NCBI GenBank assembly: GCA_035525905.1
Contig: DATLDK010000087.1
Span: forward strand, 1-62,334
From: Gaiellaceae bacterium
GTDB lineage: Bacteria > Actinomycetota > Thermoleophilia > Gaiellales > Gaiellaceae
DNA length: 62,334 nt
Reading direction: 5' to 3'
Made by a program: the position numbers and the translations under genes. Below, one piece after another: positions 2,440 to 50,591 of this stretch (the first letter of the stretch is position 1; each line of letters starts with the position of its first letter). The notes beneath the pieces are model-generated. The model searched no databases and had not been told where the DNA came from. It saw only the letters and a list, made by a program, of their open reading frames with translations.

Positions 2440-2463
2440 GGCGCGCGATACTAGCCGCCTCGC

Positions 2464-3663
2464 GTGAAGCAGATTTACCCCAATTCCATCACCGGCAAGG
2501 GCGCTCCCGCGGGCGGCAGCGTCCTCGATCACAAGTTCGGGCAGTCCGATCCGTACACGCTCGGCGTCGAGGAGGAGTACATGTTGCTCGACGGCGAGAC
2601 GTTCGACCTCGTCCAGCACATCGACACCGTGCTCAGGGCGATCACGGGGCACGAGCTCGAGCCCAGGATCAACGCGGAGCTGATGCAGTCCGTGCTCGAG
2701 ATCGCGACTCCCGTGTGCCGCAACGCGGGCGACGTCCAGCGCGAGCTGCTGGAGCTCCGCGGCTACGTGACCGGAATCGCCCGGCAGAAGGGCCTCCGCG
2801 TCGGGTCGGCCGGCACACACCCGTTCAGCCTCTTCGAGCGCCAGCGGATCACGGCCCGCGACCGCTACCGGAACCTCGTCGACCAGCTGCAATACATCGC
2901 GCGCCGCGAGCTCATCTTCGGCATGCACGTCCACGTCGCCGTCGACGATCCGGAGAAGGCGATCCAGGTCGTGAACGGGCTATTGACTCAGCTCGGGCCG
3001 CTCCTCGCCCTGTCGGCATCGTCGCCGTTCTGGCGCGGCGAGCCGACGGGCCTCTCGTCGTCCAGGCAGATGGTCTTCGCCGCGTTTCCCCGTTCCGGCC
3101 CGCCGCCACGCTTCCGCGACTACGCGGACTACGCGGAGGTGGTCGGCCAGCTGGAGCGCACCGGGTGCATCGCGGACTACACCCACATCTGGTGGGACAT
3201 CCGCCTGCACCCTCGGCTGGGCACGATCGAGATCCGGATCTGCGACGCGGTCACCCGCGTCGAGGACGCCGTCGCCCTTGCGGCCTACTGCCAGGCCCTC
3301 GTCAAGCTCCTCTCGGAGCAGCACGACCGCGGCGAGCAGATCCCCTCCTTCCATCGCATCCTCACGACCGAGAACAAGTGGCTCGCCGCGCGCTACGGAC
3401 TCGAGGCGCCCGTGATGGATCTCGCGACCGGGGCTCGGAATCGCATGCCCGTCGCGCAGCTGATCCGGCGGACCCTGAAGGAGATCGAGCCGCACGCCCG
3501 CGAGCTGGGCTCGGAGCGGGAGCTCGAGGGCATCGGCGAGATCCTCGGGCGCGGCAACGGCTCCGATCGGCAGCTGAGGGTCTTCAACGCCAACCGCGAC
3601 ATCGTCGAGGTCGTCGAGGAGATCGCGAAGGCGACCGAAGCCGCCGTGCCCGCGCGCGCCTAG
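2464..3663 (+). CDS. carboxylate-amine ligase, YbdK / glutamate-cysteine ligase family 2
   Basis: 399-aa ORF with an N-terminal FGQSDPYTLGVEEEYMLLD and overall GCS2-like sequence. The start is GTG. Confidence 0.8.
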   Translation: MKQIYPNSITGKGAPAGGSVLDHKFGQSDPYTLGVEEEYMLLDGETFDLVQHIDTVLRAITGHELEPRINAELMQSVLEIATPVCRNAGDVQRELLELRGYVTGIARQKGLRVGSAGTHPFSLFERQRITARDRYRNLVDQLQYIARRELIFGMHVHVAVDDPEKAIQVVNGLLTQLGPLLALSASSPFWRGEPTGLSSSRQMVFAAFPRSGPPPRFRDYADYAEVVGQLERTGCIADYTHIWWDIRLHPRLGTIEIRICDAVTRVEDAVALAAYCQALVKLLSEQHDRGEQIPSFHRILTTENKWLAARYGLEAPVMDLATGARNRMPVAQLIRRTLKEIEPHARELGSERELEGIGEILGRGNGSDRQLRVFNANRDIVEVVEEIAKATEAAVPARA

Positions 3664-5586: not shown

Positions 5587-6093
5587 ATGGCCGCCGGCCG
5601 CGACGAGCGCGCCTCCGTGCGCGCGGCGCAGCGAGGGTCCGCTTCGGGCATCGAGGCGCTCTTTCGGCTGCACTGGCCGAGGGCGCACCGAGCGGCGTTC
5701 CTCGTCGTCCACGACGCAGCGGCGGCGGAGGACATCGCGCAGGAAGCCTTCCTCGCAGCCATCCGCAACCTCGACCGCTTCGACCGCGGCCGCCCGTTCG
5801 GGCCGTGGCTGCACCGCATCGTCGTCAACCGCGCGATCGACTGGACTCGCGCGCGCCAGCTGCGAAACGAAGCCGAGCTCATCGAGACCGAGGCCCCTCT
5901 GGCGGGCCCGGGGCTGGACGACGCGCTCCTCGGCGCACTGGCTGCCCTCCCGCCCGAGCACAGAGCCGTGATCGTCCTCCGCCACCTGCTCGAGTACACG
6001 CCGGGAGAGATCGCCGAGCTCCTGGGCCTGCCACGCGGGACCGTCAACTCCCGCCTGCGCCGCGGCCTCGACGCGTTGCAGGAGCGCGTGTGA
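5587..6093 (+). CDS. RNA polymerase sigma-70 factor, ECF subfamily
   Basis: 168-aa ORF with region 2 (DIAQEAFLAAIRNLDRFD..FGPWLHRIVVNRAID) and region 4 (PGEIAELLGLPRGTVNSRLRRG). Confidence 0.9.
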   Translation: MAAGRDERASVRAAQRGSASGIEALFRLHWPRAHRAAFLVVHDAAAAEDIAQEAFLAAIRNLDRFDRGRPFGPWLHRIVVNRAIDWTRARQLRNEAELIETEAPLAGPGLDDALLGALAALPPEHRAVIVLRHLLEYTPGEIAELLGLPRGTVNSRLRRGLDALQERV

Positions 6094-6971
6094 GGAAGCA
6101 GCTCGAGGGCATCGAGATCTCCGGACAGCACGAGGCGCGTGAGCGCTCGTGGGCCATTGTCCAGGCCGCTTTCGCACAGCGCGAGCGGCAGCCGCGCCGC
6201 CGATCGTGGCGGCCCGTCGCGGCGATCGCACTCCTACTCGTGGTCGCGGCGGGCCTCCTCAGTCCACCGGGACGCGCCGTGCTCGACGGGGTGCGCGACG
6301 CGGTCGGCGTCGAGAAGTCCGAGCCCGCGCTCTTCTCGCTGCCGGCGCCGGGACGGCTGCTCGTGACCGCGGACTCGGGCGCGTGGGTCGTCGACGAGGA
6401 CGGCTCGAAACGCCGGCTCGGCAGCTATCGCGAAGCGTCCTGGTCCCCCTTCGGTCGCTTCGTCGTCGCGTCGCGACGCAACGAGCTGGTCGCGCTGACG
6501 CCCGGAGGCGAGGTGCGCTGGACTCTGGCACGGCCCGACGTGCGCTTCCCACGCTGGGGCGGGACGAACGCGGACACGCGGATCGCGTACCTCTCTGAAG
6601 GCGCGCTCCGCGTCGTCGGCGGTGACGGGCGCGGGGACCGGCTGCTCGACCGCCTCGCAGCCGACCGGGCCCCGGCCTGGCAGCCGGGGCGCGGGCACCG
6701 GCTCGCGTATGCTCGGCGCGACGGCACCGTCCGGGTGGTGGACGCCGACACCGGCGCTCTCGTCGGCCGCGACGCGGCGAGCTCGCTCGATGAGCCGACG
6801 CCGACCGTTTCTCCCGACGGCCGCTGGCGCGTGGTCGGGTGGGCGGACGCGGATCAATTGGTCTTCACCCGCCTTGGCCGGCCCAGGCAGATCCGCGCCG
6901 TGTCGAACGTGTCGGCCCAGTTCCGCTCACGATCGTTCCCTACGATCAGCGGATGGTGCTGCGCGCCCTGA
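6090..6971 (+). CDS. single-pass membrane protein with extracytoplasmic TolB/WD40-like propeller; putative anti-sigma partner
   Basis: GTG 6090 overlaps the sigma-factor stop (GTGA). The protein has one TM segment (VAAIALLLVVAAGLL) and SPDGRW-type repeats. No classical HxxxCxxC anti-sigma motif is present. Confidence 0.55.
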   Translation: MRKQLEGIEISGQHEARERSWAIVQAAFAQRERQPRRRSWRPVAAIALLLVVAAGLLSPPGRAVLDGVRDAVGVEKSEPALFSLPAPGRLLVTADSGAWVVDEDGSKRRLGSYREASWSPFGRFVVASRRNELVALTPGGEVRWTLARPDVRFPRWGGTNADTRIAYLSEGALRVVGGDGRGDRLLDRLAADRAPAWQPGRGHRLAYARRDGTVRVVDADTGALVGRDAASSLDEPTPTVSPDGRWRVVGWADADQLVFTRLGRPRQIRAVSNVSAQFRSRSFPTISGWCCAP

Positions 6972-7552
6972 TCGTCGCGGCGGTCCTGGTGGCTCCGGCG
7001 GAACAGCTCGGCCGCTCGTACGAAGGAAGGGCCATCGAGGTCGTGCACGTAGGCGGCCCGGGCAAGCGGATCCTCGTCTTCGGCTGCATTCACGGTGACG
7101 AGTGCGAAGGGATCGAAGTGACGACGCTGCTCCAGCAGGCGCGCTCGAAGGCCGACCTCTGGCTCGTTCCCCAGCTGAACCCGGACGGTTACGCGCGCGG
7201 GACGCGGCCGAACGCGCACGGCGTCGATCTCAATCGCGACTTCGTCGCCGCAACACAGCGCGAGACTCGCATCGCGCGCAGGCTGATCCTGCGGATTCGG
7301 CCAGACGTCACCATCTGGTTCCACCAGCCACAGGCCGTGATCCGCGCCTGGGGCCCGAGCCGGGCGACCGCCCGTCGCTATGCACGGCTCGCCGGGGCGC
7401 CGTATCGATCGTGGATCTGGCCGCCGGGCAGCGCTTCGCGCTGGCAGAACGGCCTGGGCGAGATCTCCTTCGTCGTCGAGCTCGGCCCGGGTGAGCTGAA
7501 GGACGCCGTGGCGCGCAGGCACGCGGCGGCCGTGCTCCGCCTCGCCGAGTAG
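6953..7552 (+). CDS. M14-family zinc carboxypeptidase-like protein
   Basis: From ATG 6953 (MVLRALIVAAVLVAP). Motifs are GCIHGDECEG, NPDGY and HGVDLNRDF. Confidence 0.75.
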   Translation: MVLRALIVAAVLVAPAEQLGRSYEGRAIEVVHVGGPGKRILVFGCIHGDECEGIEVTTLLQQARSKADLWLVPQLNPDGYARGTRPNAHGVDLNRDFVAATQRETRIARRLILRIRPDVTIWFHQPQAVIRAWGPSRATARRYARLAGAPYRSWIWPPGSASRWQNGLGEISFVVELGPGELKDAVARRHAAAVLRLAE

Positions 7553-7561
7553 ATTCGCGCG

Positions 7562-7993
7562 GTGTTCTGGCTCGACAACGGCACGCAAGCCGAGCTCGAT
7601 GAGCTCCTCGACCGCGGTCCGGTGCTGCTCCTCTTCTACCTCTTCGACTGGTCGCCGACCTGAACGCAGGAGCTGCGTCTCCTGCGTGACAGGAGCGCCG
7701 ATTTCGAGCAGGCAGGCGTGCGGGTCTTCGGCGTCTCCCGCGATTCGCACTGGTCGCACCGCGCGTGGAAGGAGTCGCTCGGAATCGAGGTGCCGCTCCT
7801 CTCAGACTGGAACGGCGCGCTCGCGAAGCGCTTCGGCGCAGCGCGGGTCTGGCGCTGGATGGAAGGGGTGCCGCGGCGCAGTGCCTTCCTCGTCGGCGAG
7901 GACGGTACGGTGCTCGGATCGTGGCGGTACGAGGACTCGGACGTGCCCGACTTCGACGAGCTGCTCGCGGCCGCGCGGGCGTTGGCGGGCTAG
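7562..7993 (+). CDS. peroxiredoxin-like (AhpC/TSA/BCP family) candidate selenoprotein; in-frame TGA 7661-7663 read as Sec
   Basis: Reading the frame of ORF 7718..7993 from GTG 7562 gives ...VLLLFYLFDWSPT-TGA-TQELRLLRD..., the Prx active-site block with TGA at the peroxidatic Cys position. There are no other stops, and a hairpin lies directly 3' of the TGA. Confidence 0.7.
7664..7687 (+). promoter_or_regulatory. candidate bacterial SECIS hairpin
   Basis: ACGCAGGAG (7664-7672) and CTCCTGCGT (7679-7687) form a perfect 9-bp stem with loop CTGCGT. The stem starts 1 nt after the in-frame TGA. Confidence 0.55.
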
Positions 7994-9423
7994 CGCTCGC
8001 GCTCTATCTCGGTGCGGGGGTGCTCGCCACCTCACCTGCCGTCTTCGAGACCGACCACTTCCTCGGCTACGGCGCGCCGCGCGAGGGACGGGTGACACCG
8101 GGTGACCACCTGCAGACGGCCTACAACCTCTGGCTGCCGGGGCACCAGCTCGCCCGCGGCGCGAGGCCTTGGGTCGACCCCTACAGCTTTCAGCCGGAGA
8201 TCGAGCCGCGCGTGAACTTCGCCGGTTGGCCGTTCGCGGTCGTCTACGGGCCGCTGCGGGCGCTGCTCGGCACCGTGGCGGGCTGGAACCTGTTCGTCCT
8301 GCTCAGCTACGCGGGTGCCGGCGGCTTGGCGGCGCTCTGGCTGCGCGCGCTCGGCCTGCCGCTCGGCGCGGCGATCGTGGGGGGGCTCGCCTTCACCCTG
8401 GCGCCCTACCGCGTCGCCCAGTCGACCGGTCACCTCCTCGGCCCGATCTCGATGCTGCTTCCGCTCGCGCTCTACGGGCTCGAGCGCCGGCAGGCCTGGC
8501 TCGCCGCGCTCGCGCTGGCGTCGATCCCGCTCTCCGGCCAGGTGCACCTCGCTCTCGGCGCCGTCCCGTTCGTGCTCGCCTATGCGCTCGCCCGCAGGCG
8601 AGCGTGGCTCGGTGCGATCGCCACTGCCGCGGGCGTTGCAGCAGGCGTCGTCGTCTGGGCTCTCTCACTGCATGACGCCGTCGAGCGCCCCTACTCCGAG
8701 GTCGAGCGCTACTCGGCGTCGGTGAGCGACTTCTTCAGCCGCAACCCGGCCGAGTTCGAGCGCTTCACATACGTCGGCTGGGTGCTGCCCGTCGTCGCGC
8801 TCGCAGGCGTGGGGTGCTTGTGTTTCAGAAGCACGATCTCCTCCGGCCGAAGGCTCGCCCTGGTGCTCGGCCTGGGCGTACTGGCTCCCTGCCTCCTCGC
8901 GCTCGGGGCGAGCCTTCCCGGTTACGGCGTGCTCTGGCGGCACACGCCGCTGCACTCGACCCGAGTCCCCGAGCGGCTGTTGCCGATCGCGTGCCTCTGC
9001 CTCGCGGGACTCGCAGCCGCAGCAGTCGCTTGTGTTTCAGAAACACGAGCTCGCTCGCGGCTCGTCGCGGCGGTCGCGGCCCTCGTGGTGGCGGCCGACC
9101 TCTGGGTGCCGCTCTACGACCCCCTCAACGCGGATGAGGGCAACGCGGTCTACGCCCGCGTGGCCGCCGCTCCTTCCGGGCGGCTGCTCGAGGTTCCCGT
9201 GCTGGCGCCGGACTCCTACGCCGGCAGCGTCTACCTCTACTACGCGATGCAGGCACCCCGGGAGCGGCCGCTCGGGTACTCGACCGCAGCTCCGTCCGAG
9301 GCCTTTCGCACGGCCGGCGAGCTGCCGGGCAGCGCGCGCGATCTGGGCGTCTCGGTGGTGGTCGAGTACTCGAACGGCGCGCCGGTTCGGGCGACGCGCG
9401 ACCTGCGGACACCGCTACCGTGA
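7921..9423 (+). CDS. large polytopic membrane protein, uncharacterised (possibly GT-C/YfhO-like)
   Basis: Part of the 7765..9423 ORF with many hydrophobic helices. The start is uncertain: GTG 7921 gives a basic N-terminus followed by a TM segment, and GTG 8020 is the alternative. Confidence 0.6.
   Translation: MAVRGLGRARLRRAARGRAGVGGLALALYLGAGVLATSPAVFETDHFLGYGAPREGRVTPGDHLQTAYNLWLPGHQLARGARPWVDPYSFQPEIEPRVNFAGWPFAVVYGPLRALLGTVAGWNLFVLLSYAGAGGLAALWLRALGLPLGAAIVGGLAFTLAPYRVAQSTGHLLGPISMLLPLALYGLERRQAWLAALALASIPLSGQVHLALGAVPFVLAYALARRRAWLGAIATAAGVAAGVVVWALSLHDAVERPYSEVERYSASVSDFFSRNPAEFERFTYVGWVLPVVALAGVGCLCFRSTISSGRRLALVLGLGVLAPCLLALGASLPGYGVLWRHTPLHSTRVPERLLPIACLCLAGLAAAAVACVSETRARSRLVAAVAALVVAADLWVPLYDPLNADEGNAVYARVAAAPSGRLLEVPVLAPDSYAGSVYLYYAMQAPRERPLGYSTAAPSEAFRTAGELPGSARDLGVSVVVEYSNGAPVRATRDLRTPLP
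8816..8840. repeat. AT-rich palindromic motif, copy 1 (GCTTGTGTTTCAGAAGCACGATCTC)
   Basis: The core GTGTTTC-A-GAAGCAC is at 8820-8834, inside the membrane-protein CDS. Confidence 0.8.
9028..9052. repeat. AT-rich palindromic motif, copy 2 (GCTTGTGTTTCAGAAACACGAGCTC)
   Basis: The perfect palindrome GTGTTTC-A-GAAACAC is at 9032-9046. It matches copy 1 at 23/25 positions and lies in a different reading-frame phase. Confidence 0.8.
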
Positions 9424-21698: not shown

Positions 21699-21707
21699 AC
21701 TCGAACC

Positions 21708-23159
21708 GTGGACGTGCTACGGCTTGCGACCCTGCTCGAGGAGCTGCCGCCCGAGCGCACGCGGTTGCTCGACAACCTGGGCCGGCTGCGGCGAGAGGTG
21801 GGGCCGATAACTCCGGAGCTCTCCGATGCGCTCGCAGACCGGATGAACGTGCGCCGCGGCGAGGTGCACGAGGTCGTGTCGTTCTACTCCTTCCTGCAGG
21901 TGCCGGTCAACGCGATCCGCGTCTGCACCGGGCCGATCTGCGACTGCGCGGGCTCCCGCGCTCTGCTCTCCGAGAGCGCGGTCGAGGTGCCCTGTCTCGG
22001 GCACTGCGATCTCGCACCCGTCGTCCTGCACGGCGATGACGTCCTCGGCGGCGTCACGCACTCGACGAACGGGTTCCTGCTCGCAGCGGACGACCTGCGA
22101 GAACCGGCGCTAGTGACTCAGGAGGAAGTCATCGCGCTCCTCGAGGCCTCCGGCCTCACCGGGATGGGAGGCGCGGGCTTCCCCACCTGGCGCAAGTGGG
22201 ACGCCGTACGACGGGAGCCCGGCCCGCGCGTGGTCATCGTCAACGCCGACGAGGGCGAGCCGGGGACGATCAAGGACCGCTACGTGATGGAGCTGCGCCC
22301 TCAGCTCCTCCTCGAGGGGCTCGCGGCGGCGATGCGCTTCTGCGAGACAGACGAGGCGTACATCTACCTGCGCGAGGAGTACGCGACCTCGCGCGCAGTG
22401 CTGCAGGAGGCGATCGCGGCGCGCGGGCTGCCGGTCGAGCTCGTGATCGGCGCCGGAGCGTACATCTGCGGCGAGGAGACGGCCATGCTCGAGTCGATGG
22501 AAGGGCGGCGGGGGATGCCGCGGCTGCGGCCGCCCTTTCCGGCGCAGTCGGGCTACCTCGGCCGACCGACGCTGATCAACAACGTCGAGACGCTCGCGCA
22601 TGTCGCGCTCATCCTGAGAGGCGACTGGCAGCCGACCCGCCTCTGGTCGGTCTCGGGCGCCGTGGGCAAGCCAGGCTGCTACCAGGCGCCGCTCGACATC
22701 ACTCTGCGGGAGCTGATCGACGGTTACGCGGGCGGACTCGCAGGCGAGCCGAGCGCGATCGTCCCCGGGGGCGCCGCCAGCGGGATCCTCCCGCCGGCTG
22801 CACTCGACGTACCGCTGACCCGCGAGGGCCTCGCGGAATGGGGCTGCGGGGTGGGCTCCGCCGCCGTACAGATCTTCCCGGCCTCGTACGCACCCGTTCG
22901 CCTCCTGGCCGAGACGATGCGCTTCTTCGCAGAGGAGTCGTGCCAGAAGTGCACCCCTTGCCGCATCGGCAACCGCGCACTCCACCACGTCGCCGCGGAG
23001 CTGGGGCACCGGCGCGCCCCGATGGCCCGCCACCAGATGGACGAGTGGCTGGAAGCAATGGTGCTGACCTCGATCTGCGGGCTAGGGCAGGCGGCCCCCA
23101 TCCCCGTACGGAACGCGTTCAGGCACTGGCCGGAGCTGTTCGAGACAATGCCCGCATGA
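21708..23159 (+). CDS. NAD-dependent formate dehydrogenase diaphorase subunit (fused NuoE-like + NuoF-like)
   Basis: 483-aa ORF with an N-terminal thioredoxin-like 2Fe-2S part, GMGGAGFPTWRKW (FMN/NADH site) and ESCQKCTPCRIG (4Fe-4S). Confidence 0.8.
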   Translation: MDVLRLATLLEELPPERTRLLDNLGRLRREVGPITPELSDALADRMNVRRGEVHEVVSFYSFLQVPVNAIRVCTGPICDCAGSRALLSESAVEVPCLGHCDLAPVVLHGDDVLGGVTHSTNGFLLAADDLREPALVTQEEVIALLEASGLTGMGGAGFPTWRKWDAVRREPGPRVVIVNADEGEPGTIKDRYVMELRPQLLLEGLAAAMRFCETDEAYIYLREEYATSRAVLQEAIAARGLPVELVIGAGAYICGEETAMLESMEGRRGMPRLRPPFPAQSGYLGRPTLINNVETLAHVALILRGDWQPTRLWSVSGAVGKPGCYQAPLDITLRELIDGYAGGLAGEPSAIVPGGAASGILPPAALDVPLTREGLAEWGCGVGSAAVQIFPASYAPVRLLAETMRFFAEESCQKCTPCRIGNRALHHVAAELGHRRAPMARHQMDEWLEAMVLTSICGLGQAAPIPVRNAFRHWPELFETMPA

Positions 23160-25846
23160 TCGAGTTCACCCTCGACGGACGGACGGCCTCCGCGGCGCAA
23201 GGCGAGCTCCTCGTGCACGCTGCCGCCCGGAACGGCGTCTTCATCCCAACGCTGTGCCACGACGACAAGCTCGCGCCCTATGGCGGCTGCCGCATGTGCG
23301 TCGTGGGCGTCGAGGGGTCCCCTCGCCCCCTCCCGGCCTGTGCCACGCGCGTAACCGAGGGGATGGCGGTGTCCACCAATTCCGCCGTGCCGCAGCTGCG
23401 CAAGACGCTGACGGAGATGCTCCTCTCCGAGCACCTGAATGACGACCCGGGCGGGCGGCCGAACGAGCTCACCGATCTCGCCCACGAGCTCGGCGCCGAG
23501 GCGCCGTTTCTTCTCCCCGACGCGAAGCGGGAGCCGTACGACGACCGCAACAGGCTGATGGGCTACGAGCCGGACACCTGCATCCTCTGCAATCGCTGCG
23601 TGCGCTACACACAAGAGGTCATGCAGTGCTCGGCCCTCTCGCTGGAGGGCCGGGGGCCGGACGCGCGGATCGTTCCAACGTGGGAGCGCTCGTGGCTCGA
23701 CACCGAGTGCGAGCTGTGCGGCGGCTGCCTCTCGACCTGTCCGACCGGCGCCATCTACGAGAAGTTCCTCGAAGGATCGGGGATCGAGGAGCGAGCGCTC
23801 GAGCAGACGAAGACGACGTGCACCTTCTGTGGAGTCGGGTGCCAGCTCGATCTCAACGTCGACCCGGAGACGAAGAGGATCGTCAAGGTCACCTCGAAGT
23901 CCGAGTACGCCTCGAACGAGGGCAACCTCTGCGTCAAGGGCCGCTTCGCCTTCAACTTCGTCCACCATCCCGACCGCCTGACCGAACCACTCGTCAGAGG
24001 AGAGGACGGAGAGCTGCACCCGACCAGCTGGGAGCATGCCCTCGAGGTCGCCGCGACCGGGCTGAAGGGGGTGATGGAGCGCCACTCGCCGCAGGCGGTC
24101 GGGGTCCTCGCCTCGGCGCGGCTGACGAACGAGGAGAACTACCTGATCCAGAAGCTCGCCCGGACGGGGCTCAAGACCCATTCCGTCCATTCCTGCGAAG
24201 CCACCTGACACGCTCCGACCCTCTACGGCCTGGTCAGGTCGTTCGGCAGAGGCGCTTCCACCAACTCGATCCCGGAGATCGAGAACGCCCGGTTCCTGCT
24301 CGTGATCGGTTCGAACACGACCGAGGCGCACCCGGTGCTGGCGCTCCGGATCAAGAAGGCGGTGCGGAAGGGCGCCACCCTCGTCGTCGCCGATCCGCGG
24401 GCGATCTGGCTGACCAAGCTGGCCAAGCGCCACCTGCAGCTCCGGCCCGGCTCCGACGTCTGGCTGCTGAACGCGATCATGCACGTGATCCTCGACGAGG
24501 GATTGCAGGACGACACGTACATCGCCTCCCACTGCGAGGACTTCGAGTCGGTGCGCGAGGTCGTCGCCCGGTACACGCCGGAGGAGGCCGAGCGTGTCAC
24601 GGGCGTCTCGGCGGACGCGATCAGGGCCACCGCGCGCGAGTACGCCGGCGAGCGCCATGCCGCGATCTTCTACACGCTCGGGATCACGGAGCACGCCTGC
24701 GGCGTCGACAACATCTGGTCGCTCGCGAACCTGGTCCTGATGACCGGCCATCTCGGCTACGAGTCGACCGGCCTCAACGCGCTGCGCGGCCAGAACAACG
24801 TCCAGGGACTGAACGACTCGGGCGCCAACCCGCACTACTTCCCGGGCTACCAGCCCTGGGACGACCCCGACGTGCAGGCGAAGTTCGCCGATGCCTGGGG
24901 CGTCGACCTGCCGAAGCGTGCCGGGTACCGGCTCGACCAGATCATGTCCGGGCTCCACGACGGCCGCGTGAAGGCGCTCTACCTGATCGGCGAGAACCCC
25001 GCGCAGACCGAGCCGAACGCCAAGCACGTCGAGGAGGGGCTCGCGAAGCTCGAGTTCCTGGTCGCCCAGGACCTGTTTCTGAACGAGACCTCGACGCGGT
25101 TCGCCGACGTCGTGCTCCCCGCGTCGAGCTTCGCGGAGAAGGATGGCACCTTCACGAACACCGAACGCCGCATCAACCGCGTGCGCGCGGCCGTCCCGTG
25201 CCCGGGGAGCGCCCGCGGCGACCGGGAGATCGTGATTGCGCTCGCGAGGGCTCTGGGGTGCGACTGGCCCGACTACCCGGACGCCGAGTCGGTCTGGAAC
25301 GAGCTCGCCGACCTTTCGCCGAACTGGTTCGGCGTCCGTTACCCCCGGCTGGAGGAGCACGGGATCCAGTGGCCGTGCCCGTCGCAGGACCATCCGGGAA
25401 CGATGTTCCTCCACGAGGGCCACCCCTCGCTGCCCTCGGGGAAGGGCAAGTTCCATCCAGTCGAGTATCAGCCGCCGATCGAGGAGCCGGACTCCGAGTA
25501 TCCGTTCGTGTTGTCGACCGGGAGAACGCTGTATCACTACAACTCCGGCGGGATGACCATGCGCGAGGACGGGATCACCGACAAGCAGCTCGATCCGTTC
25601 TTCGAGATCGCCGCCGAGGATGCGTCCGCGCTCGGCGTCGCCGAAGGCGAGTGGGTCCGCCTGGTCTCGCGCCGCGGGGACATCCGGGCCCGGGCGAAGG
25701 TGTCGCAACGCGTCTATCCGGGCCTCGTCTGGATGGCCCTCCACTTCGCCGAGGCAAGGGTGAACACGCTCACGCACGACGTCGGCGACCCGCTGATCGG
25801 GACGCCCGAGTACAAGGTCTCCGCGGTTCGGCTGGAGCGCGTCTGA
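23156..25846 (+). CDS. fdhA: formate dehydrogenase catalytic (molybdopterin) subunit, in-frame TGA 24206-24208 read as selenocysteine
   Basis: The track ORFs 22196..24208 (tail) and 24302..25846 share one frame with no other stop between them. The N-terminus has 2Fe-2S and 4Fe-4S motifs plus TCTFCGVGC. Around the TGA the sequence reads HSCEAT-TGA-HAPTLYGLVRSFG, the Sec/Cys Mo-ligand block. The ATG overlaps the upstream stop (ATGA). Confidence 0.85.
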
Positions 25847-26586: not shown

Positions 26587-27078
26587 CAGCTCGTCCGGCG
26601 TATTCGCGTTCACCAACAGGCGCGCGTCCGCCTCGACGACTCGGCGATTGACGCCGCGCAGAGAGAATTCCCCAGCCGCGAGGCGGCTCTCGAGCTCGGG
26701 GAGGTCGGCCTTCGCATAAGCGCCTGGGAGCGGCCCCGTCTGCGTGACCGCCCTGGCCTCGCCCAGCTCGCGCAGCAGCGCCGGCGTCACGAGCGGGCAA
26801 TCCACGGGGAGGAAGACGGCGACCTCGGTCGCTGACGCGTGCAACCCGGCGATCACCCCGACGATCGGCGCCCGCGGCTCCCGCGGCTCCACGACGACCT
26901 CGAACGGGAGGTCGAGATCGCCTTTCCCGACCGCCAGGCGGTGCGGGAACGCATCCCCCAGCGTGCGCCAGCCACGCAGGGCCAGCAGCTCGCCGTCGAA
27001 GAGCGCAAGCGGCTTGGGCGCGCCGAAGCGCGCGGAGGCGCCGCCCACGAGCAACACGCCGGTTACGTAATCCGCCAC
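26539..27078 (-). CDS. mobA: molybdenum cofactor guanylyltransferase
   Basis: From GTG 27078, with GVLLVGGASARFG, LPVDCPLV and NANTPDEL. It overlaps the fdhD 3' end by 16 nt and converges on birA with a 48-nt overlap. Confidence 0.75.
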   Translation of the reverse strand: MADYVTGVLLVGGASARFGAPKPLALFDGELLALRGWRTLGDAFPHRLAVGKGDLDLPFEVVVEPREPRAPIVGVIAGLHASATEVAVFLPVDCPLVTPALLRELGEARAVTQTGPLPGAYAKADLPELESRLAAGEFSLRGVNRRVVEADARLLVNANTPDELSALEQNLAALDDRQA

Positions 27079-27836
27079 GACTCCGTATAGACGTTGAGCG
27101 AGCCGCCCCGGACGAAGCCGCAGAGCGTGATCCCACGGTCGGTGGCGAGCTCGATCGCCAGCGACGAGGGCGCTCCGACTGCCACAAGGAGCGGGCAGCC
27201 GGACACAGCCGCCTTCTGGACGAGCTCGAAGGACAGGCGGCCGCTGACGCAGATGATCCAACGCGATAGCGGCAGCAGCCCGTCGAGGAACGCCCGGCCG
27301 ACGACCTTGTCCAGCGCGTTGTGCCGGCCCACGTCTTCCCGCACGCAGAGCAACTCACCCTGCGACGAGAAGAGGCCGCTCGCGTGCAGGCCTCCTGTCG
27401 CTTCGAACGCAGCCTGCGCCGCGCGCAGGCGGTCGGGCAGCGTCACGACGAGCGCGGCCGGAACACTGAGGTCGCTCTCGATGCGCGGCGTCTCGAACGA
27501 CACCGCCTCGAGCGCGCCCTTGCCGCAGACCCCGCATGACGACGATGTGTAGAAGCTCCGCTGCACCCGGCCAAGGTCGACTCCGGGCGCGTCCAGCTCG
27601 ATCGTATTCGCCGCCAGGTCGTCGGGCACGCGGGCGGAAACGGGTTGCAGCCCCTCGGTCAGCGCAAAACCCAGCGCGAGCTCCTCGTCATGCCCCGGGG
27701 TGCGCATGGTCACCGCGACGGGCAACCCGCCGATTCGCAGCTCGAGCGGCTCCTCGACGGCGACGAGGTCGCCTGCCTCGCCGCCCGGCACGCGGATCAC
27801 GGTCACGCGCGCCGTCGTGAGCGCAGGCGCCTCCAC
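27063..27836 (-). CDS. fdhD: formate dehydrogenase accessory sulfurtransferase
   Basis: 257-aa ORF with SSSCGVCGKGALE and VGRHNALDKV. Confidence 0.9.
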   Translation of the reverse strand: MEAPALTTARVTVIRVPGGEAGDLVAVEEPLELRIGGLPVAVTMRTPGHDEELALGFALTEGLQPVSARVPDDLAANTIELDAPGVDLGRVQRSFYTSSSCGVCGKGALEAVSFETPRIESDLSVPAALVVTLPDRLRAAQAAFEATGGLHASGLFSSQGELLCVREDVGRHNALDKVVGRAFLDGLLPLSRWIICVSGRLSFELVQKAAVSGCPLLVAVGAPSSLAIELATDRGITLCGFVRGGSLNVYTESWRIT

Positions 27837-27893
27837 GAGCCGATCCTACTTCGCGCAGGTTTACGGCCGATGAGGCATCTCGGATGTAAGGAA

Positions 27894-48038: not shown

Positions 48039-48707
48039 GTGCAGGTGCTCGCTCTCACACACGGCCCGAGCGTTGGGCCGGGAGTCTTCCAGGACGCCGT
48101 CCGCGACGGTGGGCACGACCTGCTGGAGTGCCAGGTCCCGGTCGACGGCCTACCGAGGGAGCCCGCGCAGGCTGTGCTCGTCCTCGGTGGCGCGATGCAC
48201 CCCGACGAGGACGAGCAGCACGCCTGGTTGCGGCCGGAGCTCGACTATCTCCGAGGCCTGCTGGACGATGGCACACCCGTACTCGGCGTCTGCCTCGGCT
48301 CCCAGCTCCTCGCCCGAGCCGCCGGCGCGACCGTGTATCGCTCGGCGGAGCCGGAAGTCGGGTGGCTGCCGGTCGAGCTGACGGACGCCGCCGCCGGGGA
48401 TCCCGTCGCGGCCTCGCTCCCGGAGCGCTTCGAGGCGTTCCAGTGGCACCACTACACGCACGAGCTCCCCGCTGGCGCAGTGGAGCTGGCGCGGAGCAGC
48501 GTCTGCACCCAGGCCTTCCGCCTCGGGAACGCGTGGGGCGTGCAGTTCCACCCCGAGGTACGGTCCGCGCAGGTCGATGCCTGGCTCGGCGAGGACCCGG
48601 CCGACGTCGTCGACCCGCAAGCGCTCCGGGAAGCGACGCGGGAGCGGATCGCGGCCTGGAACGACCTCGGTCGGGGCCTCTGCGCGGCGTTTCTCGCGGC
48701 GGTTTAG
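48039..48707 (+). CDS. class-I glutamine amidotransferase-like protein
   Basis: 222-aa ORF with LGVCLGSQLLA (nucleophile elbow) and QFHPE. Confidence 0.75.
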   Translation: MQVLALTHGPSVGPGVFQDAVRDGGHDLLECQVPVDGLPREPAQAVLVLGGAMHPDEDEQHAWLRPELDYLRGLLDDGTPVLGVCLGSQLLARAAGATVYRSAEPEVGWLPVELTDAAAGDPVAASLPERFEAFQWHHYTHELPAGAVELARSSVCTQAFRLGNAWGVQFHPEVRSAQVDAWLGEDPADVVDPQALREATRERIAAWNDLGRGLCAAFLAAV

Positions 48708-49066
48708 CCCAGCTCGGCCGGCAGCGACTCGTCGCGCGACCACTCGTGCCACGAGCCCCGGTAGTTGGACGCGCGGTAGCCGAGCGAGCGGAGGATGTCG
48801 GCCGCGAGCTCGGAACGAGAGCCCGAATGGCAGTACGTCACGACCTCTAGGGCCTCCGGAGGCCCGAGGCGCTCGCGGATCTGCTCCGGCGTGAAGGCGA
48901 GCAGCTCCTGAAGATCGAAGTGCCGCGCGCCGGGGATCCGTCCCGGCCGGGGATCGCATGGCGCGGCCACCTCACCCGTGTACTCACCAGCGCTGCGCAC
49001 GTCGAGCACGACGTAGCGCTCCTCCTCCAGCCGCCGGGCGATTTCCTCCAGGGTCACGTCGCTCAC
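48704..49066 (-). CDS. rhodanese-domain sulfurtransferase
   Basis: 120 aa from GTG 49066, with the active-site loop YCHSGSRS. The start overlaps the upstream stop (GTGA). Confidence 0.8.
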   Translation of the reverse strand: MSDVTLEEIARRLEEERYVVLDVRSAGEYTGEVAAPCDPRPGRIPGARHFDLQELLAFTPEQIRERLGPPEALEVVTYCHSGSRSELAADILRSLGYRASNYRGSWHEWSRDESLPAELG

Positions 49067-49638
49067 AGCGAGGCGACCAGCTGGAGCTCGGCGGCGACGG
49101 ACGGCCGCTCGGACGCGCGCTCGAGCCACGCGGCGAGAGCCGGCCAGGCCTCCAGCGGGATCCCGAGCATGTCTCGGGCGCGCACGACCCAGGGAAGGAA
49201 CGCGATGTCTGCGAGCCCGAACGCGCGGCCCGAGAGCCAGGTGGAGCGCTGCAGCAGCTCGTCGAGAAAGCCCAGCTCGGCCTCGAAGCGCTGCTGCGCC
49301 CCCTCCTCGCCGCGCCGGAGCCCGTAGTACGGCGTCGAGAAGTCGTCGAAGCGGAAGACGAGCAAGCGTCCGGCCGCGCGCTCGCCGGGATCGTCGGGCC
49401 AGAGCGGCGGCTCCGGGTGACGCTCGTTGAGGAACTCGTTGATCACGGCGGACTCGGGGAGAATCCAGCCGTCCTCCTCGACCACGGGCACCTTGCCGGC
49501 CGGGTTCTTCTCGTACAGCCAGCCGGGACGGTCGGCCAGGTCGATCTCGATCGGGTCGTAGGGAATGCCCTTCTCGGCCAGGGCGATGCGCACGCGCGCG
49601 CAATAGGGACAGCGCGCAGCGTCGTAGAGCGTGATCAC
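49063..49638 (-). CDS. glutathione S-transferase-family protein with glutaredoxin-like CPYC N-terminus
   Basis: 191 aa from GTG 49638, starting ITLYDAARCPYCARVRIAL. KVPVVEEDG..ESAVINEFL is present. The start overlaps the upstream stop (GTGA). Confidence 0.75.
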   Translation of the reverse strand: MITLYDAARCPYCARVRIALAEKGIPYDPIEIDLADRPGWLYEKNPAGKVPVVEEDGWILPESAVINEFLNERHPEPPLWPDDPGERAAGRLLVFRFDDFSTPYYGLRRGEEGAQQRFEAELGFLDELLQRSTWLSGRAFGLADIAFLPWVVRARDMLGIPLEAWPALAAWLERASERPSVAAELQLVASL

Positions 49639-50591
49639 TCCGGCTCCCACCCGTGATCGGCACCCTCGAGACCGATCTCCGCCGCGATCGCCTCGAGCAG
49701 CTCGGGCGCCGGTGGCAGCTCCGCGGGGCTTGCCGCCGTCCGTGCAACCGCCCGGATTGCGGCGGGGTCGGCACCGGTCAGCCGGGCGACGACGCGTGGG
49801 TTCGCTGCGAGCGCGACGACGTCTCCAGGCGGCAGGGTGCCGTAGTGCTCGGGCACGGAGAGATACTCGTCGACCACGCGGCCGGCTTCGAGCAGCACGA
49901 AGCGCACCACCTCGTCGTGCTCGACCCCCAGCGAGAGGACGACCGCCCCGAGCCGCTCGGACAGCTCCTTCGCGAGCCGCCGCAGCATCGAGGGGTCTCG
50001 GTCGCACACGTCGTCGTACACGGCGATCCAGCCGCCGCGGGGCGCCGAGACCGTGCTGCCGCGCGAACGGCCGGGCAGCCGGGGCACGAACTGCTGCACA
50101 GCGCGCTCGACCGCCGCGGCGTCATCGGTCTGCACGTGGATGGCGCCGTAGGAGCGACCGCCACCGACTTGCCGCACCTCCAGCTCACGCACCAGGTTGC
50201 GCGACTCCTCCCGGAAGCCGAGCCTCTCGTAGAACGCCACCGACTCCAGATTGGCGTTGAGGCGGAGATGGGTGGCGCCGCGGGCCCGCAGGTTCTCGAT
50301 CACCGCGTCGACGAGCGCCCGCCCGGCGCCGCTGCCTCGCGCAGTGTGCGTCACGTAGAGATCGCCGATCCAGGCGACGTTGTTCTCGAGCCAGGAGGAC
50401 ACGAAGCCGATCGCCTCGCCGTTCTCCTCCGCCAGGAAGAGGCCGTTGGCCGCGACTGCGCGGTCGAGCTCGGGCTCGTTCGCCTCCCAGCTCGTATCTG
50501 CCCACGGCGGTGCTGCCCCCTCGGACTGCCAGAGCTCCCAGAGCCTGCGCAGCGTCGCGCGGTCCTCGTCGGTGCCGTGCCGGATCGTCAT
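49635..50591 (-). CDS. GNAT N-acetyltransferase fused to an uncharacterised C-terminal domain
   Basis: 318-aa ORF. The N-terminal ~160 aa have the acetyl-CoA motif (ARGSGAGRALVDAV ... FYERLGF). I do not recognise the C-terminal ~155 aa. Confidence 0.7.
   Translation of the reverse strand: MTIRHGTDEDRATLRRLWELWQSEGAAPPWADTSWEANEPELDRAVAANGLFLAEENGEAIGFVSSWLENNVAWIGDLYVTHTARGSGAGRALVDAVIENLRARGATHLRLNANLESVAFYERLGFREESRNLVRELEVRQVGGGRSYGAIHVQTDDAAAVERAVQQFVPRLPGRSRGSTVSAPRGGWIAVYDDVCDRDPSMLRRLAKELSERLGAVVLSLGVEHDEVVRFVLLEAGRVVDEYLSVPEHYGTLPPGDVVALAANPRVVARLTGADPAAIRAVARTAASPAELPPAPELLEAIAAEIGLEGADHGWEPE

Follow-up and report, generated by a model that had tools for sequence, protein, structure and literature searches.

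The 62,334-nucleotide (nt) contig DATLDK010000087.1 of a Gaiellaceae bacterium, the whole of which is called the window here, contains a peroxiredoxin (Prx) gene that appears in a mechanical list of open reading frames (ORFs) as two pieces, 7562..7663 (33 amino acids, aa) and 7718..7993 (91 aa), the first of which ends at a TGA codon, 7661-7663. The question raised by this locus is whether the TGA is a stop, is translated as one of the standard amino acids or is read as selenocysteine (Sec, U), and, in the last case, which RNA structure acts as the selenocysteine insertion sequence (SECIS). A sequence-only reading of this DNA had proposed that the gene is split by ORF calling and that read-through gives 143 aa, and both the frame and the ORF list bear this out. 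Based on comparative sequence analysis, we put a probability of roughly 0.88 on 7562-7993 being one gene for a 143-aa Prx of the BCP/PrxQ type, in which the peroxidatic residue U34 would be decoded from the UGA by means of a SECIS at 7679-7695.

A conserved TGA within a single reading frame

A single frame runs from GTG 7562 to TAG 7991-7993 with the TGA as its sole internal stop, which amounts to 143 codons when the TGA is counted. An in-frame TAG at 7550-7552, which is the stop of an upstream M14-type peptidase gene, excludes a longer N-terminus, and GTG 7562 is therefore the first possible start.

The orthologue sample consisted of 82 Sec-type loci, 80 from species-representative genomes and two from JGI contigs (P0001 and P0038, also numbered L081 and L082), which were fetched from approximately 78 different metagenome-assembled genomes (MAGs) of Gaiellaceae/Thermoleophilia. 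Four homologues with Cys at the site (L083-L086) formed the Cys-type comparison set. The TGA was present at the aligned codon in 82 of the 82 orthologous loci, among Sec forms that are mutually as little as 50% identical. Upstream of it the peptide FYLFDW is invariant and nearby codons vary synonymously (Ser is TCG in 54 sequences, TCC in 12, TCA in six and TCT in four), and the ratio of nonsynonymous to synonymous divergence (pN/pS) is 0.70 over the 30 codons upstream of the TGA and 0.45 downstream. The sequence-only reading had named orthologues starting at the position equivalent to 7718 as a case that would speak against it; instead, the upstream frame is kept, with a start codon at a distance of 33 codons from the TGA in 40 of the 82 orthologues and of 44 codons in 25. 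Judged from these alignments, the conservation of the TGA lifts it far above chance and, together with the conservation of the flanking protein and of the upstream start, leaves no room for a pseudogene, for a sequencing error or for a start at the equivalent of 7718.

The same evidence bears on the possibility that the TGA is a genuine stop, in which case the locus would be a pseudogene or split gene making only short products (the 33-aa piece and/or the 91-aa ORF from GTG 7718). Standard gene callers do give only 91- or 105-108-aa products, and the window yielded no Sec machinery. However, a nonsense mutation would not persist precisely at the catalytic codon in all 82 loci from about 78 species, with the protein conserved on both sides of it and the upstream start conserved as well. 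The active site and roughly a third of the Prx fold would be absent from the 91-aa product. A stop would also leave the suppression of synonymous changes right after the TGA, described below, unexplained. We regard this explanation as extremely improbable.

Genes of the window were called by combining Pfam matches with a filter on the GC content of the three codon positions (GC1/2/3); GC3 alone failed to separate genes from shadow frames in this 70% GC DNA. TGA is the ordinary stop of 17 of the 33 Pfam-supported genes and is the commonest stop (TAG 13, TAA 3). The codon is therefore not reassigned, and with TGA as the commonest stop the organism would use local context to separate a UGA for Sec from a UGA for termination. 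This count also bears on the possibility that one of the standard amino acids (Trp, Cys or Gly), and not Sec, is inserted at the UGA, through local read-through or an altered code. In its favour, two JGI calls (P0001 and P0038) are full length with Trp at the site; however, translation of their DNA under table 11 does not reproduce these two proteins, and the codon in the DNA is TGA. Apparently a code in which TGA stands for Trp was applied to them, and the selenoprotein is thereby concealed by a route other than truncation. The 17 genes terminated by TGA include that of the formate dehydrogenase (FDH) of the window, which is itself of the Sec type, and the UGA of the Prx gene is followed by a candidate SECIS that complies with the bacterial consensus. 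Trp or Gly at the peroxidatic position would inactivate a peroxiredoxin. A standard amino acid at this codon is thus highly improbable.

Two minor observations were made in the orthologue sample. At one locus (L045:3088-3159, CAWGGO010000003.1) one nucleotide is missing 39 nt after the TGA (GACCGA-TTCG) and the frame shifts, which points either to an error of the assembly or to a real pseudogene in that MAG. Two MAGs, CAWFYY01 (L021, L025) and CAWETB01 (L011, L041), contain paralogous TGA-containing Prx genes, with the two copies on different contigs.

A cysteine-free peroxiredoxin related to BCP and PrxQ

With Cys substituted for the stop, the Pfam domain AhpC/TSA (PF00578) spans the TGA, covering residues 6-117 at 87.4 bits (cutoff 26 bits, E 9e-25). 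The closest solved structure by sequence is the BCP of Aeropyrum pernix, 2cx3 (E 1.7e-18, residues 11-143). The TGA falls opposite the TGC codon for Cys in the four Cys-type homologues, and in 2cx3 it is matched by the Cys of FSPVCTKEL, so its assignment to the peroxidatic position by the sequence-only reading is correct in comparison with BCP/PrxQ homologues. The catalytic Arg, R106, is invariant in the alignments, and its counterpart in 2cx3 is the Arg of KRAVFIV.

As a stand-in for the window protein, the structure of the orthologue P0001, which is 71% identical and has the same short N-terminus, was modelled with AlphaFold (AF2). The model has a Prx fold with a predicted local distance difference test score (pLDDT) of 91.2 and a predicted template modelling score (pTM) of 0.87, and residue 34 lies in the first turn of helix 32-50. 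The best Foldseek match of the model was Bcp4 (3hjp, template modelling (TM) score 0.86), followed by PrxQ, BcpB and AhpE (TM 0.81-0.86 for the group). The structures compared were Sulfolobus Bcp4 3hjp, Xanthomonas PrxQ 5iiz, M. tuberculosis BcpB 5epf and AhpE 1xxu, with 2cx3 at TM 0.77. The window Prx shares with the Cys-type BCP/PrxQ and 1-Cys AhpE proteins its fold and size class, the catalytic Arg and the location of the peroxidatic residue at the first turn of the corresponding helix, and it resembles AhpE further in having no resolving Cys. It differs from them in having Sec for Cys, in an identity of only 22-31% and, in its clade, in an N-terminus that is approximately 11-20 residues shorter.

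In the Prx motif P-x-x-x-T/S-x-x-C(U), the part S/T-x-x-U is supplied by S31-P-T-U34, and position -7 is Leu (FYLFDWSPTU) and not Pro. Leu at this position is common to the Sec and Cys members of the subfamily. The window product contains no Cys, as do 74 of the 82 Sec forms, which would make it a "1-Sec" enzyme dependent on an external reductant. Full-length Cys-type relatives, reading FDWSxT-C-TNEL, are about 55% identical.

Prx with T/SxxU is an established prokaryotic selenoprotein family, of which PrxU has been characterised experimentally (PMC13188914, PMC1794560, PMC5029168). The family had been described as sparsely documented in the sequence-only reading, which is an overstatement, given that 78 organisms (91 proteins) had already been counted in a 2016 survey of more than 5200 genomes (PMC5029168). 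With this family, whose prototype is PrxU of Eubacterium acidaminophilum, the window Prx shares the AhpC/TSA domain, Sec in place of the peroxidatic Cys in S/T-x-x-U, a stem-loop in the coding region after the UGA and the existence of Cys homologues in related organisms. In contrast to PrxU, it belongs to the short BCP/PrxQ/AhpE-like group and not to the AhpC type, and it is set apart from the family by the absence of Cys, by the Leu in place of the motif Pro and by its origin in Gaiellaceae/Thermoleophilia.

Membership of the described Sec-containing families was rejected in each case. The score was 40.2 bits for PrxU (NF040737, cutoff 270 bits) and 22.5 bits for the SelL-related redox family (NF040769, cutoff 120 bits). 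Prx-SUH (NF045827, CxxU) gave no match at E <= 1e-3, the motif here being S-P-T-U. The UxxC/UxxU Prx-like thiol:disulfide oxidoreductases do not fit a protein that reads U-T-Q-E and has no Cys. No NCBIfam equivalog was found for the window Prx.

The candidate SECIS

The bacterial SECIS consensus calls for an apical loop of 3-9 nt on an upper stem of 4-16 bp (PMC13188914, Fig. 2 legend), a G at loop position 1 or 2 that is usually followed by G or U, a spacing of 16-37 nt between the UGA and the loop, and a minimum free energy (MFE) of -7.5 kcal/mol or lower (PMC13188914). Two overlapping hairpins follow the UGA of the Prx gene. The first is formed by the inverted repeat ACGCAGGAG/CTCCTGCGT at 7664-7672/7679-7687, and the second occupies 7679-7695. 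The 3' arm of the first is the 5' arm of the second, so that the two are mutually exclusive.

The hairpin at 7679-7695 passes on all four points: its loop has 5 nt and its stem 6 bp, the loop CGUGA has G at position 2 followed by U (invariant in 79 of 79 sequences), the spacing is 21 nt (7664-7684), and the isolated helix has -7.9 kcal/mol. With the 15 nt 3' of the UGA kept single-stranded, which mimics a ribosome paused at the UGA, it becomes the MFE fold. It shares with the bacterial SECIS of the E. coli fdhF type and the bSECISearch consensus the position in the coding region 3' of the UGA, the G-U in the apical loop and a spacing of 21 nt, and it differs from the fdhF type in its loop, which is CGUGA and not GGUC.

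The hairpin is superimposed on the codons for L-L-R-D-R-S, and their use is restricted. Codon counts of the block 7679-7693 were taken from 78 orthologues and pair counts of the hairpins from 79 aligned sequences. In the block, CTC was found in 76 of 78, CTG, CGT and GAC in 78 of 78 each, and the last codon was AGG in 72 and AGA in six. An ordinary Arg codon ten codons later (+60) varies as CGC in 40, CGG in 18, AAG in eight and CGT in four. Synonymous divergence (pS) from the window sequence is 0.025 over the five block codons and 0.35-0.41 in the flanking coding sequence. In the helix, 91% of the alignment cells pair; three pairs are invariant and one changes from UA to UG in 12 sequences. 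The outer, flanking pair is GC in 34 sequences, CG in 17, GU in two and UA in one, a pattern matched by none of 500 shuffles, and the stem of 6 bp in the window has 7 bp in many orthologues. From our reading of the six sequences with AGA GAG, they could keep the stem by means of a bulged A. In an independent RNAalifold run, the inner pairs of 7679-7695 were the sole helix retained. Compared with other bacterial SECIS elements the sequence conservation is unusually strict, because the element overlaps with the conserved LLRDR peptide.

The four Cys-type homologues served as a negative control. They encode the peptide LLRD(R/K) with other codons, for example CTG TTG CGC GAC AAG and CTG CTG CGC GAC CGC, and the combination of 6-bp stem and CGUGA loop is absent from all four. 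Partial relics are present in two of them, L086 (CTC CTG CGT GAC, then CGT GGC) and L084 (CTG CTG CGC GAC AGG AGC). The Cys forms are 66-73% identical to their nearest Sec forms and are thus closer to them than the most divergent Sec forms are to each other. These identities, together with the relics, suggest that Sec/Cys exchanges may have taken place within this Prx family.

The sequence-only reading had placed the SECIS in the hairpin at 7664-7687. The inverted repeat is real, and it begins at the first base after the TGA and not one base later as had been stated. It forms the most stable local structure in the window (-15.7 kcal/mol), folding of 7655-7720 gives it as the MFE structure (-28.8 kcal/mol), and it is perfect in 21 of 78 orthologues, with 85.5% of cells pairing overall. 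These points speak for it as the functional SECIS of the selenoprotein gene. Its loop of 6 nt, its stem of 9 bp and its energy pass the consensus; however, its loop lies 9 nt after the UGA, below the range of 16-37 nt, and the first two bases of the loop (CUGCGU) are C and U. Its 5' arm (ACGCAGGAG) is variable and holds all of the variation, with the central pairs 19-36 and 21-34 broken in 37 and 41 of the 79 sequences, respectively, and uncompensated, so that the predicted conservation of this hairpin alongside the TGA did not hold. Messenger RNA just 3' of the A-site codon lies in the mRNA channel of the ribosome, and once the UGA occupies the A site, this channel would enclose the 5' arm. 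A SECIS at 7664-7687 would also leave the invariance of GAC AGG downstream unexplained. Taken alone the hairpin is unremarkable (z = -1.87; eight of 200 shuffles fold as well), and perfect 9-bp hairpins with loops of 3-10 nt were found at 24 positions of the window, compared with 10.7 +/- 5.2 in Markov simulations. We consider it improbable that 7664-7687 is the SECIS; the real candidate, conserved and consensus-compliant on the sequences compared, is 7679-7695.

A permissive Rfam scan of 7500-7800 returned only miRNA and snoRNA matches at chance level. No further copies of the 15-nt SECIS core were found in the window, where there was one exact match and matches with three mismatches occurred at chance level.

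A second TGA in the formate dehydrogenase gene

The FDH had been reported in the sequence-only reading as a sign that the organism decodes UGA as Sec, and an FdsA-type alpha subunit gene with an internal TGA is indeed present (Table 1). Its frame is continuous across the single TGA, the Pfam domains Molybdopterin and Molydop_binding match downstream of it, and in alignments with the solved FDHs 9t1s, 7qv7 and 7bkb the TGA (...HSCEAT-U-HAPTLYGL...) coincides with the catalytic Sec/Cys. The ATG of the gene and the TGA that ends the FdsB-like gene before it share bases (ATGA). A hairpin with a 6-bp stem starts 17 nt after the TGA and carries the classical GGUC loop 23 nt after the UGA; it has -7.6 kcal/mol and, whether or not bases are masked, belongs to the MFE fold of the RNA 3' of the UGA. 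Among 80 close metagenomic relatives (L087-L166, 82-95% identity), counted with a relaxed form of the motif pattern, all 80 have the TGA, the GGUC loop and each of the six base pairs. On the sequence evidence, therefore, a catalytic Sec/Cys site coincides with a TGA in two unrelated genes of the window, and in both a consensus-type hairpin follows at a near-equal distance.

A different ORF, 48704-49777 on the minus strand, has a C-terminal rhodanese domain and is weakly similar to the C-terminus of MoeB; its architecture is not that of SelU/YbbB, and no connection with selenium metabolism emerged.

Proposed decoding of the UGA and points against it

A ribosome that brings the UGA to its A site would unwind the next 15 nt, including the 5' arm of 7664-7687. 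The freed CUCCUG (7679-7684) could then pair with CAGGAG (7690-7695) to give a 6-bp stem whose CGUGA loop, 21 nt from the UGA, would be presented at the mRNA entrance, and the folding results suggest that the RNA may switch from 7664-7687 to 7679-7695 in this way. As the SECIS, the second hairpin would recruit SelB-GTP-Sec-tRNASec, leading to insertion of Sec in place of termination. The signal would be written into the synonymous positions of the LLRDR motif, for which Cys-type relatives use other codons. In the finished "1-Sec" peroxidase, the selenolate would attack the peroxide, and an external thiol reductant would recycle the selenenic acid.

Several points weigh against a Sec-containing Prx decoded through 7679-7695. 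The energy of the SECIS is marginal (-7.9 against a cutoff of -7.5 kcal/mol), and in the window it competes with a more stable alternative fold of -15.7 kcal/mol; a competing stronger hairpin upstream, in the window's clade, and the lack of a matching Rfam model also distinguish it from known bacterial SECIS elements, as no Rfam family matched in the window scan. The helix is mostly invariant, so there is little covariation, and the invariance of the block is owed in part to the conserved LLRDR peptide. Leu stands in place of the canonical Pro in the PxxxT/SxxC motif. Furthermore, no selA, selB, selD or tRNA-Sec was found in the 62-kb window by annotated ORFs, ARAGORN and Rfam, nor any other tRNA, and a tRNA scan of the first 60 orthologous loci (L001-L060) was empty, so the presence of the decoding machinery is inferred from the FDH alone.

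Annotation in databases and significance

Because an in-frame Sec TGA has been kept in the relatives, the databases list truncated fragments only, as the sequence-only reading had expected. Nearly all close relatives, which are 80-92% identical and, where named, come from Gaiellaceae MAGs, are called at 91 or 105-108 aa, and about 110 of the 120 best database matches are truncated "redoxin domain-containing" fragments. A literature search for Gaiella and selenocysteine returned no paper on selenoproteins, only passing mentions.

From the sequences compared, the Prx described here forms a new lineage within a known selenoprotein family. The lineage is systematically mis-annotated, of the BCP/PrxQ type, cysteine-free and found in Gaiellaceae/Thermoleophilia. 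The main contributions are the comparative confirmation of recoding, the correction of the SECIS hairpin and the documentation of a systematic mis-annotation, in which one family is reduced to fragments of 91-108 aa across an abundant soil group of Actinomycetota. About 78 species with Sec-Prx are added, which is about equal to the number of all bacteria in the 2016 count (78 organisms; PMC5029168). This would extend the use of Sec in a soil actinobacterial family, Gaiellaceae, beyond formate dehydrogenase to peroxide defence. The mechanism is the standard bacterial one and what is known of Sec decoding is unchanged; the locus is a clean case of a SECIS in the synonymous sites of a conserved peptide, with Cys-type relatives that bear relics, and could be used for the training of SECIS and selenoprotein predictors and for the study of Sec/Cys exchange.

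Gene neighbourhood

The features of the Prx and FDH loci are collected in Table 1.

Table 1. Positions of the features discussed in the text
Feature	Positions	Strand	Evidence or remark
Complete coding sequence of the predicted 143-aa Sec BCP/PrxQ-type peroxiredoxin (GTG start, U34, TAG stop)	7562..7993	+	Frame, Pfam, structure match, orthologues
TGA probably read as selenocysteine U34, peroxidatic residue	7661..7663	+	Conservation, Cys alignment
Candidate SECIS, CUCCUG (7679-7684) / loop CGUGA (7685-7689) / CAGGAG (7690-7695)	7679..7695	+	Conservation, covariation, consensus
9-bp hairpin ACGCAGGAG / loop CUGCGU / CUCCUGCGU	7664..7687	+	Folding, orthologues; lineage-specific, exclusive of the SECIS hairpin
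FdsA-type formate dehydrogenase alpha subunit, predicted Sec U351 at TGA 24206-24208	23156..25846	+	Pfam, frame, structure alignment
SECIS-like hairpin of the formate dehydrogenase gene, CGGCCU / GGUC / AGGUCG	24226..24241	+	Fold, conservation
FdsB-like gene	21699-23159		Before the FdsA-type gene
FdhD	27063-27845	-	Near the formate dehydrogenase gene
YbdK/GCS2-type glutamate-cysteine (carboxylate-amine) ligase	2455-3663
Sigma factor gene	5587-6093
M14-type peptidase gene	6839-7552
Multi-pass membrane protein, unnamed	~8020-9423		Without Pfam or NCBIfam family

The same multi-pass membrane protein is encoded directly after the Prx gene in 78 of the 86 loci (L001-L086). In many lineages, including those of the Cys-type L083 and L084, a YbdK/GCS2-type ligase gene lies directly upstream of Prx; in the window, the sigma factor gene, an unannotated stretch (~6.1-6.8 kb) and the M14-type peptidase gene stand between the two. 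From gene order, the linkage to the ligase is suggestive of a thiol reductant for the Prx. It could be envisaged that the cysteine-free "1-Sec" BCP is the core of a redox module made up of the YbdK/GCS2 ligase, the Sec-Prx and the membrane protein, in which it is recycled by a low-molecular-weight thiol from the neighbouring gene, and that, in addition, Sec insertion is gated by a two-hairpin switch in which 7664-7687 masks 7679-7695. This combined proposal is unlikely as a whole. If it were true, Gaiellaceae and related Thermoleophilia would possess a conserved module that has so far not been described, and the switch would be a regulatory layer not yet described for bacterial SECIS elements.

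On the immediate upstream side, the TAG of the peptidase gene lies 9 nt before the GTG of the Prx gene and, by eye, no obvious Shine-Dalgarno sequence was seen between them (7550-7564), which suggests that the two genes may be translationally coupled.

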